Of a stretch of 34,687 nt of DNA, positions 3,705 to 34,309 are shown piece after piece; position 1 is the first letter of the stretch, and each line of letters starts with the position of its first letter. The notes below the pieces were generated by a model. The model searched no databases, had not been told where the DNA came from, and was given only the letters and a program-made list of their open reading frames with translations. Origin of the DNA: a virus (Duplodnaviria > Caudoviricetes); IMG/VR virus record IMGVR_UViG_3300032373_000069, positions 1-34,687 of that record. One strand, given 5' to 3'. Made by a program: the position numbers and the translations under genes.

Positions 3705-4661
3705 TTATCCTTGTTTACGTTTCCGAGCCATGTATGCCTCTCTGTATGCGGCAGGGTCGGAAATCTTGGAGAGGTTTGACGGGGCTTTCTGTCGCCTTGG
3801 CTTAACTGCTTTCGGTGGCTGCTTAACCTCTGTCGGCTGCTTTGCCTTGGCGCTTTTTGCCTTCGCCGCTTGAATAGCTTTAAACCCAACTTGAGCATAG
3901 TATAGCGTTTTGATTTCTTGTGGACGTACCGCCCGCGAAACTGCTTCTGGTGCGAACCCGATAACATCAACAGCAAACTTGCCAAGCTCAGTTTTAAGCT
4001 CATCGCCCCAATTCGGGATTTCAGACTTCATAGCTTCGTCAGTGCGCTGGGCTGTCTTTGCCATATTCTCGTTGTGCAACTGCGTTCGATGCTGTTCCGC
4101 TACCTGAACATCTTGAATTAATGCGTTCCTAGCTTGGCCTAACTGCTCCATTTGGTGACGGAGTTTGGTCGCGCCCGCTAGATCAGTATCGTAGTAGCTA
4201 TTCCAGTCGATAGACTCATAGTCTTTGAGTTGCCTATCAATAGCAGACAATTCTGCCATTTTCTCTGAATTAGCTCTCGATGCCTCGACATACTGCTTGA
4301 AGTCCTCTTGCTCGGCTTCATACGCTTTCCGACTTTCAGCTAGTGCTTGTGTCTTGTGCGTGTAATCCTGATCTCGCATGATCGCATCTTTGATCTCAGC
4401 GGGAACAGCATATTTTTTGCCGTCATATTCGACTTCTACTGTGTCGGATGCGACTTCTGAATCGTCGTCGCTATCAGCGTCGTCATCATCAGTCTGGTCG
4501 CTTTCGGAGTCGTCGTCGTCTTCTTCTTCCGGCTCCGTATCAATGGACTCATCGTCCTCTCCAGTGACTTCATCTTCGGCAGAAGTTTGGTCATCATCGA
4601 CTTCTTCCGCGTCAGGTATGGACGTGTCAACTGCAACGCTACCCAATTCTTCGTCAACCAT
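3705..4661 (-). CDS. Scaffolding protein (likely start 4661)
   Basis: Very acidic N-terminus, DYTHKTQALAE coiled-coil motif, basic C-terminus; directly upstream of the coat gene. Confidence 0.85.
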   Translation of the reverse strand: MVDEELGSVAVDTSIPDAEEVDDDQTSAEDEVTGEDDESIDTEPEEEDDDDSESDQTDDDDADSDDDSEVASDTVEVEYDGKKYAVPAEIKDAIMRDQDYTHKTQALAESRKAYEAEQEDFKQYVEASRANSEKMAELSAIDRQLKDYESIDWNSYYDTDLAGATKLRHQMEQLGQARNALIQDVQVAEQHRTQLHNENMAKTAQRTDEAMKSEIPNWGDELKTELGKFAVDVIGFAPEAVSRAVRPQEIKTLYYAQVGFKAIQAAKAKSAKAKQPTEVKQPPKAVKPRRQKAPSNLSKISDPAAYREAYMARKRKQG

Positions 4662-4947: not shown

Positions 4948-6179
4948 TACTTGTTGTCGTACAGGTTAAGGCTGGTTCGCCCGATGACATCAACATCACC
5001 TTGCCCCCCAGATGCAGCAGTCGCAGTAAAGTACAGGACATCTCGTGCGTTCAATCTGAACCTAATCGGGTCGACCAAACTACTCTCAAGCGTGACAGAT
5101 GTATCAATGCTATCTCTGTAAATCTCATACCTAGTACCCACTAACCGACTGTACGAATAGCCTTTTAGTTCTATCGTCTTCGACTTGTTGCTTGTGATGG
5201 CCTTGAACCACACCATAGCTGCTGATGCCGTTTGGTTAAACCCTGTGTGGAATATCATCTGCTGCGTCACTGATCCAAGCGCAGGGATAACGGCTTGAAC
5301 TGAACCACCTGTTGTCGCTGTGACTGTAATGTCATTGGCGTTGTATGTTAGACCACCGTTGGTGTTTACCGCTGCTCTGTTAATGCCTAGACCAGTGAAG
5401 GATGTAACGTCACTGCCTGTACTGCCGAGCGTATGAACTGCAAGGGCCTGATTGCCATCAGCATCTAAGTAATAGATCACTAACGATAATGCGCCTGTCG
5501 TGCCGAGGCCATCAGTCGTGCTGTTGTATGCAATGGTGAAAGTCGATGCCGTTGTGATAATCGTGAAGTCATTAGGTGATGCTGCCCACACGACTTGCTC
5601 TGTACCAGCGGTCAGTGTTTCACGATAGCCAAACTTGTTCCAACTTGTGACGCCACTGCGTAGCCCTCTAATCACCTCATCTTGGTAGTTAGTCGGGCGA
5701 GTTGCTGCACCGTCACTGTCCAAGCCAATACTCTGGTTGCCGGGTGTGTTCGATGCCCTGAACGTGCCGTAGTAGCAATGCAAACGCATATATGTTTGAG
5801 CATCTGTGTCGTTGACATAGCGAAGTCGGAAGTATCGCGGCCCTTTTACGGCTGTGTGAAACTCATGGATGTTCGCCGCAACGGTAAAGCCTTGAACTGG
5901 GAACGTGCTGTCTGCGTTGACACCATCGTTAGAGAAATCGAAGTAAAGCGTCCCAGCGCCATCCGTCTTCATCGACACCATAACTTCTGACTGGTTGTTC
6001 TGTTCCCATTCGCCAGTGAACGTGGCTGATGCGTCTAATGGCTCAAGCGTTGTGTTGCCCGTACTCTCAAACGAATATTGCTCCACAATCTCGTTATGAA
6101 CTTCGCCAGCATCAGTGGTGACTTTGTTCGTGTTGAGGCTTTTCCCTGTACCTTCTACCGGGATAAAGTCATCGCTCAT
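4947..6179 (-). CDS. Putative virion structural / head-associated beta-rich protein
   Basis: 410 aa, Thr/Gly/Ser-rich, located between portal and scaffold. Confidence 0.5.
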   Translation of the reverse strand: MSDDFIPVEGTGKSLNTNKVTTDAGEVHNEIVEQYSFESTGNTTLEPLDASATFTGEWEQNNQSEVMVSMKTDGAGTLYFDFSNDGVNADSTFPVQGFTVAANIHEFHTAVKGPRYFRLRYVNDTDAQTYMRLHCYYGTFRASNTPGNQSIGLDSDGAATRPTNYQDEVIRGLRSGVTSWNKFGYRETLTAGTEQVVWAASPNDFTIITTASTFTIAYNSTTDGLGTTGALSLVIYYLDADGNQALAVHTLGSTGSDVTSFTGLGINRAAVNTNGGLTYNANDITVTATTGGSVQAVIPALGSVTQQMIFHTGFNQTASAAMVWFKAITSNKSKTIELKGYSYSRLVGTRYEIYRDSIDTSVTLESSLVDPIRFRLNARDVLYFTATAASGGQGDVDVIGRTSLNLYDNK

Positions 6180-10436: not shown

Positions 10437-10610
10437 CTATCCTCCCCAACCTTTATATATTACACCGTAGTCGACTTGACAGGATAAAAACTTTACATCT
10501 TTTAATAGTTTGTCCATGTTTCTACGTTCCTGTCTTTGCTTTTTCTCCATCGCGATCATCCTTGCATTAAATAGCTTAAAGTGATCATCGTTTGTCATAT
10601 CATACACCAT
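10437..10610 (-). CDS. Hypothetical protein (start uncertain)
   Basis: Short ORF filling the gap between the GapR-like gene and the next ORF. Confidence 0.4.
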   Translation of the reverse strand: MVYDMTNDDHFKLFNARMIAMEKKQRQERRNMDKLLKDVKFLSCQVDYGVIYKGWGG

Positions 10611-10854
10611 GAATACGCTCCCAATAAAGGTCGAACATACTGATCTGCTCTGAGCGCTCGTTGGCATCCATTGCTCGTTCTTTAATCACCTGCTTGATGG
10701 TTTTCGAGCAATACCCAGCGCTATTTGCTTCTGAGTATACTTCTTTGATGTCGGCCCTGAGTGCGTCTGCTTCTTCGTTGAGCCGTTCAATACGCTCTAC
10801 GATTGTTCTAAGCCTATCGTCGGCTGCTGTGCTGTTTACTAATTCCATTTTCAT
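10600..10854 (-). CDS. gapR: GapR / DUF2312 (UPF0335) nucleoid-associated DNA-binding protein
   Basis: LRTIVERIERLNEE...DIKEVYSEA.S.GY..KTIKQVI..R.MD..ER.EQ....DLY matches the GapR consensus. Confidence 0.9.
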   Translation of the reverse strand: MKMELVNSTAADDRLRTIVERIERLNEEADALRADIKEVYSEANSAGYCSKTIKQVIKERAMDANERSEQISMFDLYWERIHGV

Positions 10855-11093: not shown

Positions 11094-11308
11094 AATAAAT
11101 CTGCCAATTCCTTTAATTTATTTAAACCAATAGATTTTGACCATTTAACAACAGTCAAATCACCATCTTTCGATATGCAAACTTCGATGCAATGCTGGCC
11201 CCTGCGAAAATATATTAAATCTGTTGCCTTCAACTCTGACTCTTTCTGCCTCCTAGCCACGCATTGGCAAGGATATACGCCGCAAGCTGTGCAAGCTGTT
11301 AGTGTCAT
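11090..11308 (-). CDS. Hypothetical protein with N-terminal CxxC-x4-CxC motif
   Basis: CTACGVYPCQC; AAAGGG RBS upstream. Confidence 0.55.
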   Translation of the reverse strand: MTLTACTACGVYPCQCVARRQKESELKATDLIYFRRGQHCIEVCISKDGDLTVVKWSKSIGLNKLKELADLL

Positions 11309-11335
11309 TGCGCTGCCCTTTCTGTTTGTTTGTTG

Positions 11336-12655
11336 TTAATCATGGCACCCGCCAAAGCCTGTATCGCAGTATGTATCGTTTTCTTCATCGAACACCCAAT
11401 CAGATTGGGCTGTGGCGTGGGCGATTAACTTTGCCCATGTCATGGACTTGTCTGGGTTTCTGAAATGCCTTCCGGTTGATTCAATGTCTGCCCACCACTT
11501 TGCCCTGTCTGGATGATATTTAGCAAGGAAAGCCCTTGATTTTTCCCCCTTTAAGAAGCATCCGTCACAGTTTGATAGGGATGAATGAACATTTAAGTCA
11601 AAATCGTTCTCTGACCACCACACACCTATATCTTGCTCAATAATTCCTGCCGTGTGCAATGGTGTAAATGTTTCCCAAATGTCATCATCCTTTAAATTGT
11701 TAACCCGTCGATTTTCATCTGCACGAAACCCAACGACAGCGGCCCACTCAGTATAGCCGCTGCGGATCATATATTCCTTGGCTGGCAATACTTTGAGGTC
11801 AGAGGTGCAGAACCTTGCCATGCTGTTTGGCGCAAATTTGCGTTCCTCTATAAGCGCACTAAATGGCTCGCCGCTGCGTGACGCGGTTTTGTAATCTACA
11901 ACCTTGAATGGGGTAGGTGCTGCTGGTGCGGTTTCTACGTTTGCGCCAGTGGCTTTAAACAAAAGTTTGTCTATTTTCTCCACCTTCCCAAAATACTCAG
12001 ATGCAATAGATATCAGCTTTGATATATCTTTAGCGTTCCCATCCCAAGCACCATACCGTGGCTCTTTTGGCAAATTAAATATTGCTACACCCCCGCAAGC
12101 TAAAGAAATTTGCATAAGTGTTTCCCGTAATGTTTTTTCGTCTGGCATCACGTTAAGAACATTAGAAGCCATGACAACAGGATATTTTCTATCCAGTGCG
12201 TTTATGTCGTGCAAGCCGGGGACAATGTTACGCCCTATCTCATAAGGCGTTGCTGATATACCTTGATCTAATAGCACCTTTGAGTGCATAGCAAACTTGC
12301 CAGCACCGAAGTCCAGAACCGGACCCTGCAAGTTTGCTGCGACATATCTTGGTACTATAGCTTTTGCACCGATAGCCTTTGAAGCGCGGCAGGTCTTATT
12401 GGATTTTTTCACCCATTCAGGCCACCCGAGCCTTTCAAGCCACACAATAGGGACGTTCCATTCTTCGCTGCACCGTTGCACAAAGTCCAAAGTCTCCGGC
12501 ATCTCTCTGCCAGTGTTTTGGAATAAGACATGGCAATCGTCAGGCAGCACACCATTATACCGATCTAATATCTTCTTGAGCATATACCCAGATGTTCGAC
12601 CACCGCTGAATTGTATAGCGACTGGCCCATCCGGTAATTTGTATGGATCGCTCAT
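11336..12655 (-). CDS. PAPS-reductase/DndC-like PP-loop protein with an inserted SAM-dependent methyltransferase domain (likely start 12655)
   Basis: FSGGRTS PP-loop, NTGRE, RFCT..LK, GFRADE, NCDGCFLK and a C-terminal Cys motif; internal VLDFGAG...SNVLNV domain. Confidence 0.85.
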   Translation of the reverse strand: MSDPYKLPDGPVAIQFSGGRTSGYMLKKILDRYNGVLPDDCHVLFQNTGREMPETLDFVQRCSEEWNVPIVWLERLGWPEWVKKSNKTCRASKAIGAKAIVPRYVAANLQGPVLDFGAGKFAMHSKVLLDQGISATPYEIGRNIVPGLHDINALDRKYPVVMASNVLNVMPDEKTLRETLMQISLACGGVAIFNLPKEPRYGAWDGNAKDISKLISIASEYFGKVEKIDKLLFKATGANVETAPAAPTPFKVVDYKTASRSGEPFSALIEERKFAPNSMARFCTSDLKVLPAKEYMIRSGYTEWAAVVGFRADENRRVNNLKDDDIWETFTPLHTAGIIEQDIGVWWSENDFDLNVHSSLSNCDGCFLKGEKSRAFLAKYHPDRAKWWADIESTGRHFRNPDKSMTWAKLIAHATAQSDWVFDEENDTYCDTGFGGCHD

Positions 12656-13086
12656 TGTGCTGCCCTTTCGATTGCATCCCGAAGCATCATTCTTCGTCTG
12701 CCCCATACTTCCAAATTTTCATATAACTCAGCCCAAGTTGGGAAAAACTTACTCGACCTGCGTATTGTCATCAGAACGTATTCAACGACATCTGCCGGGT
12801 ATTCTTCCAAGTCCTCAACGTAGATTGCTATTATAGCAGCCTTATCCATGTCGTCCATGTTTCGCATCGGCATAGTTAAAATCATTTTCTGAACCAGCCT
12901 TGCGATGGCCTTCTTGGGCAGTGGCTCACAAGCTGCTACCGCCTCGTCCAAATGCGTCAGGTCAACATTAGCAATATCAAATCCCACAACATCGTTCGTG
13001 TCACTCCCAGCCCAAACGGGTTGCAACCTCATCCCCGATTTCAAAGATGCTTCGAGGCTTTTTGTTATCTCTCCCGGGGTTGTCAT
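12652..13086 (-). CDS. Putative helicase loader/inhibitor-like replication protein (start uncertain)
   Basis: YVEDLEEYPADVV......R...KFFPTWAEL motif; directly downstream of the initiator, in the lambda P position. Confidence 0.55.
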   Translation of the reverse strand: MTTPGEITKSLEASLKSGMRLQPVWAGSDTNDVVGFDIANVDLTHLDEAVAACEPLPKKAIARLVQKMILTMPMRNMDDMDKAAIIAIYVEDLEEYPADVVEYVLMTIRRSSKFFPTWAELYENLEVWGRRRMMLRDAIERAAQ

Positions 13087-20834: not shown

Positions 20835-21325
20835 GTGAAATATCCACGATGTTCGCCAAGCGAGCGCAGCAATGGGTTGATCTTGATAGCGTACCATCTG
20901 ACTTAGCTTCGCAAGATATGCTTAGAGCATCTGAATGGTTGGCTAAGTATGAAGCCGAGATTGAACGGCTTGAGGTTAAGTTAAAAGACACCGAGCAAGA
21001 TTACATCGACGCTTCGATAGAGGCTGACACCATGCGTAGTCAACGCGACGAACTTGCTGCGGCTTTGCGGGAATTTATAGCATGGTTTGAAACCGCCCCG
21101 GAAGGCGATCCAGAAACTAGCGGAAAGTACGCACCTGAAGACCGTGACGATATTCATTGTGTTGAGTTGTCCATACAAGTGGCAAAATTAGATACAACAC
21201 TCGCCAAGCTGAAGGGAGATGAATGCCCTCACTGTGGTGCTGGTGATGAAAACCACCACTCGTTCACATGCCCAACGGGGCTGCACCCAGATCAAAAGAA
21301 GTCTCGTCAAGCTGAAAGGAGATGA
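20831..21325 (+). CDS. Hypothetical coiled-coil protein (Ea22/Ead-like modular type)
   Basis: AEIERL..., QRDELAAAL, LAKLKG motifs. Confidence 0.6.
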   Translation: MSEISTMFAKRAQQWVDLDSVPSDLASQDMLRASEWLAKYEAEIERLEVKLKDTEQDYIDASIEADTMRSQRDELAAALREFIAWFETAPEGDPETSGKYAPEDRDDIHCVELSIQVAKLDTTLAKLKGDECPHCGAGDENHHSFTCPTGLHPDQKKSRQAERR

Positions 21326-21328
21326 ACG

Positions 21329-21703
21329 ATGACCAATAAAAGAGAGCCTATCGTTTTAGATGTTAGTGCGGCGATGCAGACGTTAACCGATAACCCTGAC
21401 TTGTGTGAGCAGATGAATGAAATGATCGGCGGTGCGGCCTTAACCCAAGCACACAGGGAAGTCGAAGAATACAGAGTTGAGTGGCAAGAGCAAGAGGAAG
21501 CGAAGAACGCATGGCATAAACGGTGCTTGATGTTAGAGAAACAACGCGACGAACTCGCTGCGCTATTAGAAACAGTTAAACAGGCTTGCTTGTTTGATGA
21601 TGATGACGGTCGGATTGGTGTAAGTGAAGATGTAGTCATACCTACTGAGTTATTTACTGTAATCTGCGAAGCACTCAACAAGCTGGATGGAGATGAACGA
21701 TGA
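21329..21703 (+). CDS. Hypothetical coiled-coil protein, partial paralogue of the previous gene
   Basis: Shares QRDELAA and L.KL.GDE. Confidence 0.6.
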   Translation: MTNKREPIVLDVSAAMQTLTDNPDLCEQMNEMIGGAALTQAHREVEEYRVEWQEQEEAKNAWHKRCLMLEKQRDELAALLETVKQACLFDDDDGRIGVSEDVVIPTELFTVICEALNKLDGDER

Positions 21704-31996: not shown

Positions 31997-32691
31997 TATA
32001 CAATCCTCGTAATAGGGGCTGGAATAAAGTCGTTGCCTTCCCACCAGTTCCGTCTGAATTGGTATTGAGGCTGTGGGATGGGTGCCGCAGTTGGGTTTAG
32101 AACGCTTGGGCCAGCTTGTGGAGGGTATATAACGCCCGTGTAGTCGCTGCCACCACCAGAATCCCCTTCATTCGATACGTCTGCTGCTGTGGGAGAACCA
32201 GTAATGCTAATGCTCGCCTCTGTGTCTTGGTTCGCGGCTTCCATTGCCTCTGCCAGAGTGCCTTTTGCATTGTTAAACCCGACAACGTTGTCGGTAATGT
32301 CATTCGAAATAGGAGTCGCCAAGTCAAAAAGACCGCTTAGAAATCCTTCAACATTATATCCCTCAGTCTCTGCCGCTGGGCCTGTAAAGCCCGGTCCTCT
32401 CATTGGCGCGTTATTTTTTGGGTTAGTGTTAAAGAACGCTGGAGCCCATGATGGAGGGCCGACATTAGACGGAGAGCTACTAGGCGCATCAACGCTATAG
32501 CCATGCCCGACAGGTGATGCCATGCCTTGCGTATTCGCTGCGGAAACGTCACTCAAACCGGGGTGTCCGGGGGGTTCGCCGCCACCATCGCCACCGGGGC
32601 CTGCACCAGCAGCGAAACACATAGACGCAATGTTCTTGCGATCTAAATGCTCAAATGAGAATGCATCCAAGCTGTTACAAAATTCGTCCAT
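31996..32691 (-). CDS. Gly/Pro/Ser-rich low-complexity protein, putative virion component
   Basis: 231 aa; GAGG RBS; TAATG-coupled to the ejection gene; leader ends MCF before AAGAGPGGDGGG. Confidence 0.65.
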   Translation of the reverse strand: MDEFCNSLDAFSFEHLDRKNIASMCFAAGAGPGGDGGGEPPGHPGLSDVSAANTQGMASPVGHGYSVDAPSSSPSNVGPPSWAPAFFNTNPKNNAPMRGPGFTGPAAETEGYNVEGFLSGLFDLATPISNDITDNVVGFNNAKGTLAEAMEAANQDTEASISITGSPTAADVSNEGDSGGGSDYTGVIYPPQAGPSVLNPTAAPIPQPQYQFRRNWWEGNDFIPAPITRIV

Positions 32692-33148
32692 AGCGTCCTC
32701 TAATCGTTTTCATGTCTCGCGCTCTGACGCGTTTGCAGTCGCCGGGGATGATAGCCTTTAATTCTTCTAAGCAATGCCGAACGTGTGACGGGAGGATAAC
32801 AATTTCTGCTCCCCATAGCTCAGGACCAGAGCGCCAATCGCTAGGCTGCATCTGCCTGTTTCCAGCCATTTTTGTATGTGCAGTTTGCGGAGGTAAGTAC
32901 GCCCAAGTGACGAAACCAACAGGCGCATGGTTGTGAATGAACAGGTGAAATTGCTTGAGTTGAATCGGAGCCATCAAATAGTTCTTAATATCCGAGACTG
33001 TCCAATCCTTGTATCTGTCGAACATACTCATCAACGACACGACAAAGCCGAGTTTCATTGAGTCATGGAAAGGCTGTTCGCTAGTGTGATAAATGCTCAT
33101 GTCAGGGAGCGTTGAGTGCAGCGCATGGCTTGTCATAGCTTCACCCAT
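32675..33148 (-). CDS. HlyC/RtxC-family toxin-activating acyltransferase paralogue with divergent active site
   Basis: LG.V..LM, W.V..I.....PIQL.Q, PVGFVTWAYL, DWRSG.ELW; catalytic SxxH replaced by FDRY and DxIAPFG by EIVILPS. Confidence 0.82.
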   Translation of the reverse strand: MGEAMTSHALHSTLPDMSIYHTSEQPFHDSMKLGFVVSLMSMFDRYKDWTVSDIKNYLMAPIQLKQFHLFIHNHAPVGFVTWAYLPPQTAHTKMAGNRQMQPSDWRSGPELWGAEIVILPSHVRHCLEELKAIIPGDCKRVRARDMKTIRGRYGRIL

Positions 33149-33891
33149 GATATAACCATTCCAGCAGGGTCAAATTCCCACCACCGCTCTTTCGTTGTTT
33201 CTGCTCTTGGGCTTTTATGATGGTTGTTATGCCATCCTTCGCCAAAACTGAGGAAATTCAGCCACCAGACGTTTTTGCTCTTGTCTTTTGCATCGTGGCT
33301 TTGGTATCCCCAATTCTTATGAGCAGCCCAATTCAAGAAGCCCTCTGCGAACATCGTCAACGCGGCAGGGACGAAGAATCCCCAGTATAAGCCCTCAACA
33401 CCAAACGCAGCGAATATGCACATTGCAAAGACTGCAACGACTTGGAAGTAATACTTGTGCAAGAATGCGCAGAACGGGTCGCGGATAATTTTCTTCATTC
33501 CAGCGAAACCAGAAACCTTTTCCATATCGTACCGGACAGCTTGCATATTAAAAAACCCGATATCGCTGCGATGGGGGTCGCCGTCACGGTCTGAATATCT
33601 ATGATGTGATTTATGAATCACGGCCCACCCTAGAGGACTGCCGCTGCAACTTACTGCGCCAAGGAGAATGAATATCCGACGCAATGTCTCATTACGGAAC
33701 TCAAATGCGCCGTGGCTCAAATGTCTGTGATAACCGACGATCACGCCAAGGCCATTCATTAAGAACAACATGACGTAAGCTATTGCGATGCCATGCCAGC
33801 TTAATTCAACAAGCCCTATAGTCGGCAGCAAAAGCACACACGCAATATTAAATGCGAACAATAGTGCTATTTTGTCAACTGACTGATGCAT
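33133..33891 (-). CDS. Membrane fatty acid desaturase, Delta9 (OLE1/DesC-like)
   Basis: Three His boxes HRHLSH, HKSHH and HNNHH; SD..GDPH, GEGWHNNHH, WWEFDP; TM segments. Confidence 0.95.
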   Translation of the reverse strand: MHQSVDKIALLFAFNIACVLLLPTIGLVELSWHGIAIAYVMLFLMNGLGVIVGYHRHLSHGAFEFRNETLRRIFILLGAVSCSGSPLGWAVIHKSHHRYSDRDGDPHRSDIGFFNMQAVRYDMEKVSGFAGMKKIIRDPFCAFLHKYYFQVVAVFAMCIFAAFGVEGLYWGFFVPAALTMFAEGFLNWAAHKNWGYQSHDAKDKSKNVWWLNFLSFGEGWHNNHHKSPRAETTKERWWEFDPAGMVISWVKL

Positions 33892-34309
33892 TATGGCTCC
33901 TTGGTTTCACTATCAAATCGGAACTAACCCGTCTTGATTTCTTGTGCCGCCGCCATTCTGCTTTTGGATAGTCTGGGAATAGGTCGCGGCATTTACGGTA
34001 CAGTTTCCGAGCATCCCCAAATGGGGTTATGAAATCTGCGAAGATCAGAACGTTGCCGCTTCTCCAATCTTCAACTTGCAATCTATAGTTACCTTCAAGA
34101 AACCTATCAGCTTTTTCCCTGTCTGTAAATCCCCATGATACCCAGCCGTGCAATTGGCTATCTCTAAACAATCCGATGTTTTGCCTGAGATTTACCGGGG
34201 GGATTATTATTCGTGAAACCTGCTCCATGTTCCAATTCTTATGCACATCAGATTGCGACATCAAATGTATAACGTGGTCTAATGGCGCAGGGGCAAAGGT
34301 TTCTTTCAT
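33875..34309 (-). CDS. HlyC/RtxC-family toxin-activating lysine acyltransferase
   Basis: SDVHKNW (SxxH), WVSW, EDWRSG, DFITPFGD..KLY; aligns by eye along its length with E. coli HlyC motifs. Confidence 0.9.
   Translation of the reverse strand: MKETFAPAPLDHVIHLMSQSDVHKNWNMEQVSRIIIPPVNLRQNIGLFRDSQLHGWVSWGFTDREKADRFLEGNYRLQVEDWRSGNVLIFADFITPFGDARKLYRKCRDLFPDYPKAEWRRHKKSRRVSSDLIVKPRSHNASVS

Follow-up and report, generated by a model that had tools for sequence, protein, structure and literature searches.

A predicted class I SAM-dependent methyltransferase nested in a NinC-type PP-loop protein of a phage: a possible tethered two-enzyme anti-defence protein

What would a phage gain from a methyltransferase built into the middle of another enzyme? 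The question is raised by a gene on the minus strand (11336..12655) of a complete virus record with direct terminal repeats, whose 34,687 bp are the window analysed here. Its open reading frame (ORF) runs from an ATG at 12655 to a stop at 11336 and encodes 439 amino acids, for which the AF2 model reached a pLDDT of 85.9 and a pTM of 0.84. A sequence-only reading had proposed a methyltransferase inserted in frame within a DndC-like sulfur-transfer protein. The insertion was upheld, but the recipient proved to belong to the lambda-NinC/phrog_424 family rather than to DndC.

The three parts of the chain were delimited on the minus strand as follows. At the N-terminal end, aa 1-75 (12431..12655) form the first part of the NinC/phrog_424 PP-loop domain, with SGGRTS (aa 17-22, 12590-12607), FQNTG and IVWLE (aa 70-74). 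The predicted methyltransferase (aa 76-239) and a linker (aa 240-248) occupy 11912..12430, with VLDFGAG at aa 113-119 (LDFGAG at 12299-12316), YPVVMASNVLNV at aa 158-169, SNVLNVM at 12146-12166 and TAPAAPTP at aa 242-249. The NinC domain resumes on the C-terminal side (aa 249-439, 11336..11911), where it carries FKVVDYKTASRSGEPF (aa 250-265), RFCT (aa 281-284), GFRADE, NCDGCFLK (NCDGC at aa 362-366), C430 and C437. All the motifs on which the sequence-only reading relied were located in this ORF, namely motif I, the second insert motif and the linker on the one side and SGGRTS, RFCT and NCDGC of an intact PP-loop/cysteine host domain on the other. Its estimate of about 170 extra residues between WLE and F.VV agreed with an alignment to 10 uninterrupted homologues. 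In the model, the structural boundary of the insert lies at about aa 76-239, followed by the linker, and the insert stands between strands E70-75 and E250-253, where the uninterrupted homologues have a short loop; the methyltransferase is thereby predicted to sit in a surface beta-hairpin loop of the PP-loop domain. Among the 120 homologues listed, 117 are uninterrupted proteins of 266-300 aa lacking the block between WLE and F.VV, and three carry it (P0002, P0014 and P0015). The first of these is a full-length copy, 95% identical, from other datasets.

The junctions were checked against contigs of other sequencing runs, and run X1 was excluded from junction support since it may be the source of the record. 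A contig of run X3 spans 11340-12462 in one piece with 70 differences, and contigs of run X5 bridge each insert junction separately (X3/X5 differences, 70-83). A run X2 contig matches 11000-12460 without a single difference, although it extends only 30 bases past the N-terminal junction. Because the contigs of X3 and X5 bridge both junctions, a chimeric assembly is rejected. An intein or intron found no support either, the insert being wholly of methyltransferase fold with no nuclease or intein family match, and the window gave no Rfam match. No convincing repeat that could represent a target duplication was found at the insert's own junctions, and of the repeats spaced roughly like the insert (D3, D5 and D9 at 66-79%; D15, 11 nt) none coincides with both junctions. 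The N(R/K)TxR of the insert resembles SHNSASR of the host domain, but is not evidence of duplication because free members of the insert family carry N(R/K)TxR too.

The insert is under purifying selection. Of its 33 differences from X3, 29 were listed, 22 of them synonymous and 7 non-synonymous, for a pN/pS of 0.098, and against X5 the value was 0.103; the inserts of two further fusion loci, L004 and L011, differ by a dN of 0.23 and a dS of about 2.0. With a pN/pS of about 0.10 and the family-invariant residues retained, a decaying passenger was ruled out. Three 90% clusters, of 3, 5 and 10 members, contain the fusion. A neutral passenger, a self-splicing element or an assembly artefact would fit a rare and precisely bounded insert, but is extremely improbable in view of the independently bridged junctions, the low pN/pS, the three clusters and, for self-splicing, the missing Rfam, nuclease and intein family matches.

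The host domain was assigned to phrog_424 by profile search (E 3e-44 over aa 6-412), while the PF01507 match of the fusion protein (21.6 bits, E 2.4e-4) fell below the cut-off of 22.5. With the insert skipped, model residues 1-371 aligned to the APS reductase 2goy with Z 14.0 and rmsd 3.3 over 173 aligned residues. In VIA the host fold matched APS/PAPS reductases (Z 13.4-14.0), tied with CysD, NcsA, LarE and TilS, whereas Foldseek of the full model gave no PAPS-like PDB match among the matches listed. The two host halves are thus modelled as rejoining into an APS-reductase-like fold. The uninterrupted relative P0003, 67% identical to the host part, aligned to lambda NinC at 31% (E 1e-15) and to the 479-aa p0018 of Vibrio phage 41E34.2 at 29% (E 1e-17), and matched 436 phage records, lambda NinC among them. 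The gene shares with lambda NinC/PHROG 424 the SGGRTS, NTG, FCT, RADE and CxxC motifs and the position after replication genes, and differs from them in the block that replaces their short loop. The PP-loop, NTG, RFCT, G[IF]RADE and NCDxCFLK are all intact in 5/5 fusion sequences. Across 122 aligned sequences C363, D364, C430 and C437 are invariant and C283 and C366 at least 90% conserved, and the conserved cysteines are likely Fe-S ligands. Gly370 was considered as a fusion signature and dropped, being present in P0040, P0080 and P0119 as well.

SspD and DndC proper were rejected as identities of the host domain. As SspD, the host domain scored 55.9 bits (PADLOC SspD, E 1.2e-15) against 293-380 for bacterial SspD genes; as DndC, it gave no TIGR03183 match, and P0003 reached 15 bits against a cut-off of 290. 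The likeness to the SspD, DndC and BrxP sulfurtransferases consists in a PP-loop fold, here predicted, with conserved cysteines, and the difference lies in the score and in the gene complement: no dnd/ssp partner (sspBC, dndDE or a cysteine desulfurase) was found in the 47 other ORFs scanned or in a six-frame motif scan of the whole genome, although the host may encode such partners. A motif scan of the whole genome likewise revealed no canonical DNA methylase motif. NinC is widely annotated as a sulfur-metabolism gene and is present in phage lambda, and the accessible portions of the literature found give no chemistry for it; in its accessible part, one source treats phage PAPS-reductase function as open (PMC11437467).

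The insert, folded separately from an 86-sequence alignment (pLDDT 87.9), gave 364 Foldseek matches at E<=0.001. Its best structural match in VIA was 3h2b (Z 13.6, rmsd 2.9, 151 aligned), tied with UbiG-, ChlM- and TehB-like enzymes, and in the full-chain model residues 76-239 likewise aligned to methyltransferases. Together with motif I (DxGxG), these models bear out the earlier assignment of a Rossmann fold, and the insert is a predicted class I SAM-dependent methyltransferase. Its nearest folds are small-molecule O/N/S-methyltransferases and not DNA methylases, with RNA methyltransferases also among the neighbours. An N6A/N4C methylase was rejected, the motif after strand 4 being SNVLNVM and no (D/N/S)PP(Y/F/W) occurring in the ORF; a C5 methylase was rejected for the absence of the PCQ catalytic motif from the ORF, and Dam for the lack of a significant alignment to the Dam of p0018. 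No PADLOC methyltransferase model matched the insert. Searches against cultured phages and single-sequence scans of viral contigs returned no match, and PDB sequence searches no useful one.

At least 712 relatives of the insert were found at E<=1e-3 among 50% representatives, and the Atlas clusters of the family among those listed are 75-100% viral. Family proteins are shorter than 230 aa in 82/159 cases and longer than 1000 aa in 30/159. Among 47 scanned, the fusion partners included LPD38, ART-PolyVal, InPase, Mu portal, DarA_C, Topo IB and zeta toxin, and Bmt2 was found on 19% of the members of one Atlas cluster. Since the family joins many unrelated domains, fusion by itself does not imply a common function. 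These observations bear on the reading that the methyltransferase is independent mobile cargo with an RNA, protein or small-metabolite target, lodged in a permissive NinC loop so that the fusion merely co-expresses both. The occurrence of the family alone or in giant proteins with unrelated partners, the small-molecule and RNA methyltransferases among its fold neighbours and the Bmt2 annotations would suit such cargo, and the accessible part of Iyer et al. (PMC5512222) describes this pattern for phage polyvalent proteins. The insert family shares LPD38, ART-PolyVal, InPase, DarA_C and Mu portal partners with those proteins, but the methylase described in that part of the paper is a DarB-type N6A methylase with an SF2 helicase, and the insert family does not figure there. 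We nevertheless rate independent cargo as rather unlikely, in that two distant host clades have the insert at one site, with equal junction lengths and a residue confined to the fusions. Independent cargo is, moreover, more usually acquired by terminal fusion than by internal insertion.

The recurrence of the fusion was analysed with a second fused lineage (P0014, P0015, L004/L006 and L011), which has the insert at the same site of NinC. Junction spacing is equal in both lineages, with 12 residues from WxE to a conserved Asn. In a 65-sequence tree of the host domain the two lineages fell in separate starred clades, and host monophyly was rejected (p-AU 4.6e-5); free insert trees part the two inserts, but their monophyly was not rejected (p-AU 0.44). 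Met170, after SNVxNx, is present in 5/5 fusion sequences and in 0/164 other motif-bearing family members obtained by protein searches, 137 of which have Gln there; two of the 166 non-fusion members had no motif match. A DNA pattern containing the fusion Met gave 3 matches in all of IMG/VR, every one a fusion. The same site and the fusion Met in two host clades point either to one insertion moved between NinC alleles or to repeated insertion with convergence. A quick tree of host aa 249-330 joined both fusion lineages (96*). A careful tree did not reproduce the grouping, and a test of this segment did not reject a grouping with P0003/P0004 (p-AU 0.31), so that mosaicism is not claimed. Of 80 viral methyltransferase loci examined, three are fused, two of them encoding identical proteins, and in one (L063) separate methyltransferase and phrog_424 genes are adjacent; none of 80 metagenome loci was fused or adjacent in a search whose pattern excluded the fusion Met. 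In a Rhodocytophaga locus (L219:7959-10016), domain X (described below) is followed by a more distant methyltransferase and then by phrog_424; a DarB-like methylase and an ORF of 2152 aa lie nearby.

The sequence-only reading had also noted a likeness to methyltransferases of phosphorothioation (PT) loci. It was borne out in part, by a shared domain and a profile match, while kinship is weak on single sequences. The shared domain, here called domain X (L062:1032-1502; alignment A5), comprises about 145 aa with the pattern GKxxGxxxYxH ... EP ... YHHKW and no Pfam or Atlas match. It is fused to an insert-family methyltransferase in 12/159 proteins (37/319 counting redundant loci), is a separate nearby gene in 8 loci of the family, and matches positions 318-472, the C-terminal part, of TIGR04096. 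Bacterial domain X loci contain a TIGR04096-like methyltransferase in 35/67 cases, a PAPS-like gene in 13/67 and both in 9/67, these loci being mostly from Planctomycetes and not independent; a scan of 11 of the PAPS-like genes gave a strong SspD match for 7 and a strong DndC match for 2. By sequence comparison, the insert family is tied to phosphorothioation loci through the domain X that it shares with TIGR04096. At a further locus (L183:3227-4507, minus strand), a PAPS-like domain lies behind an N-terminal domain matching a PADLOC type II methyltransferase model, and this PAPS-like fusion adjoins a methyltransferase-domain X fusion.

Direct homology between the insert family and the TIGR04096 methyltransferase was examined at the profile level, where hhalign gave 91.7% (E 7.7e-7 over 67 columns). 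A TIGR04096-like profile matched 8/221 insert-family domains at E<1e-3, and 2/86 members weakly matched TIGR04096. In the reverse direction TIGR04096 domains scored -1.8 to 8 bits on the insert-family profile, and single sequences were not separated from one generic control. The profile match makes homology suggestive. The insert shares with TIGR04096 the motif pattern DxGxG ... V[LI]NV, but was rejected as a TIGR04096 protein proper, given no match to the model (cut-off 150) and a phage genome from which domain X is absent. No function for TIGR04096 and no nested NinC-methyltransferase were found in the literature searched, the coverage of which stopped short of subscription journals and supplements.

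The joining of NinC to a methylase is a known theme. As described in the accessible text of Piel et al. (bioRxiv 10.1101/2021.05.05.442762), p0018 of the Vibrio phage is a PAPS-Dam fusion that, moved with one neighbouring gene, gave Dnd escape; because the two genes were transferred together, that text does not isolate the role of the PAPS domain itself. The present gene resembles p0018 of Vibrio phage P5a in its NinC/phrog_424 host family, in combining it with a methyltransferase in one polypeptide and in belonging to a small phage. Unlike the Dam of p0018, which is appended C-terminally, end to end, the methyltransferase here is unrelated, nested and without an NPPY-type motif. What appears new, and was not found in the literature searched, is a nested, non-Dam, phosphorothioation-linked methyltransferase in two NinC host clades. 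The precedent, read by analogy, supports the anti-defence role suggested from the sequence.

One form that such a role could take is a decoy or inhibitor, in which the NinC fold would bind or out-compete DndC/SspD complexes, leaving the DNA unmodified, and the methyltransferase would inactivate a defence component. The homology of the host domain to SspD, the anti-Dnd phenotype of the family member p0018 and the occurrence of PAPS reductases in anti-defence operons, as given in the accessible part of PMC13551039, are consistent with it. The PP-loop, RADE and CxxC motifs, however, are conserved across the NinC family and in all fusions, a pattern that would fit catalysis, and we regard a decoy as very unlikely.

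We tentatively favour, at slightly below an even chance, a tethered two-enzyme anti-defence protein, whose predicted effect would be to protect replicating phage DNA, by modification or shielding, from Dnd/Ssp-type (phosphorothioate) restriction. PP-loop/Fe-S enzymes such as SspD, DndC, NcsA and LarE adenylate a substrate oxygen and then transfer sulfur. By analogy with them, the NinC part would adenylate an oxygen of a nucleic acid or nucleotide with ATP at its SGGRTS loop, and its cysteines, likely holding a 4Fe-4S cluster, would install sulfur or another group. The insert would bind SAM and methylate a phosphate-bearing acceptor held by the conserved R90, H124, H149 and R200, at or close to the DNA on which the NinC part acts. 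NinC may bring the methyltransferase to DNA, replacing the domain X that often accompanies the insert family. Both activities would serve one purpose, and the product of one need not be the substrate of the other. Against this reading stand the absence of the insert from 117 of the 120 host homologues listed, the count of only three fused cases and one adjacent in the 80 viral loci, the small-molecule methyltransferases among the fold neighbours and the weak single-sequence kinship to TIGR04096. The fusion joins NinC to an uncharacterised viral methyltransferase family (at least 712 clusters) tied to phosphorothioation loci, and together with the insert-free comparator P0003 it makes two questions testable, the role of NinC and the acceptor of phosphorothioation-associated methyltransferases. 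Each active site is open to clean point mutants in one small gene.

A stricter reading would couple the two steps: NinC would sulfurate phage DNA, as a phosphorothioate or thio-base, and the insert would S-methylate that sulfur, so that the methylthio mark hides the DNA from PT-sensing and from ordinary restriction. The nested rather than end-to-end arrangement and the whole-chain pTM, from which alone a defined domain arrangement is suggested, argue for coupling, as do the position of the fusion-only Met170 beside the predicted acceptor site, the link of the insert family to PT loci through domain X and the adjacent gene pairs in L063 and L219. Thiol/S-methyltransferases and TehB-like enzymes are also among the fold neighbours, tied with many others. 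Against coupling stand the lack of a cysteine desulfurase or dnd/ssp partner in the scanned ORFs of the complete genome and the occurrence of most members of each family without the other; Met170, too, may mark only shared ancestry of the insert. S-methylated phosphorothioates are, besides, chemically labile. Strict coupling is considered unlikely. Its more general form, a single-chain thiolate-then-methylate machine in which NinC puts sulfur on DNA and a PT-linked family comprising the insert and TIGR04096 caps it with a methylthio mark not described before, is distinctly improbable; if true, it would provide a function for lambda NinC and for the orphan Dnd-associated methyltransferase together.

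The ATG of the fusion gene overlaps the TGA of the upstream gene (12652) as ATGA, and the gene directly preceding it sits after the replication initiator, with terminase genes downstream of the fusion gene. Its placement just downstream of the replication genes, as noted from the sequence, therefore held, and includes coupling by the ATGA overlap. An 18-bp direct repeat flanks the gene on the minus strand. The upstream copy (12652..12669) takes in the final codons and stop codon of the preceding gene together with the fusion gene's ribosome-binding site and ATG; the start of the next gene (11308) lies in the downstream copy (11305..11322). The copies are identical at 17/18 positions, the best of 1275 gene-start pairs in this genome, and the repeat is likely a target duplication left by a gene cassette, probably the fusion gene itself, that inserted where the 11308 gene starts. 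L011 has 15 identical bases at matching places (3786-3805 and 5139-5158), both genes starting with MRFN, and L004 a shorter match at the corresponding places. As the uninterrupted locus L163 (3974 and 4821) carries the repeat as well (16/18), cassette-like movement looks general for NinC-type genes and not special to the fusion. Elsewhere, two adjacent gene starts on the plus strand (21315-21332 and 21686-21703) share 16/18 bases, possibly another cassette boundary.

By family profile, the genome has portal and coat genes of the P22-like type, recombination genes (Erf/YqaJ/SSB) and a gene resembling GapR. The last, encoding a GapR-like DNA-binding protein (10600-10854, minus strand; PF10073, E 1e-23), lies between the fusion gene and the terminase and suggests an alphaproteobacterial host. 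Promoter and terminator counts showed no excess over shuffled sequence. In the whole genome GATC, CGCG, AGCT, GGCC and CATG are strongly rarer than expected (z -5 to -7.5), and GANTC-type pentamers are likewise under-represented, whereas GAAC/GTTC are not. At 32675-34309 on the minus strand, a fatty acid desaturase gene (PF00487, E 6e-22) lies between two genes for HlyC-like acyltransferases (PF02794, E 3e-22 and 1e-19). The three adjoin DNA-ejection genes and make up a lipid/acyl module that is unusual in a phage of 35 kb.
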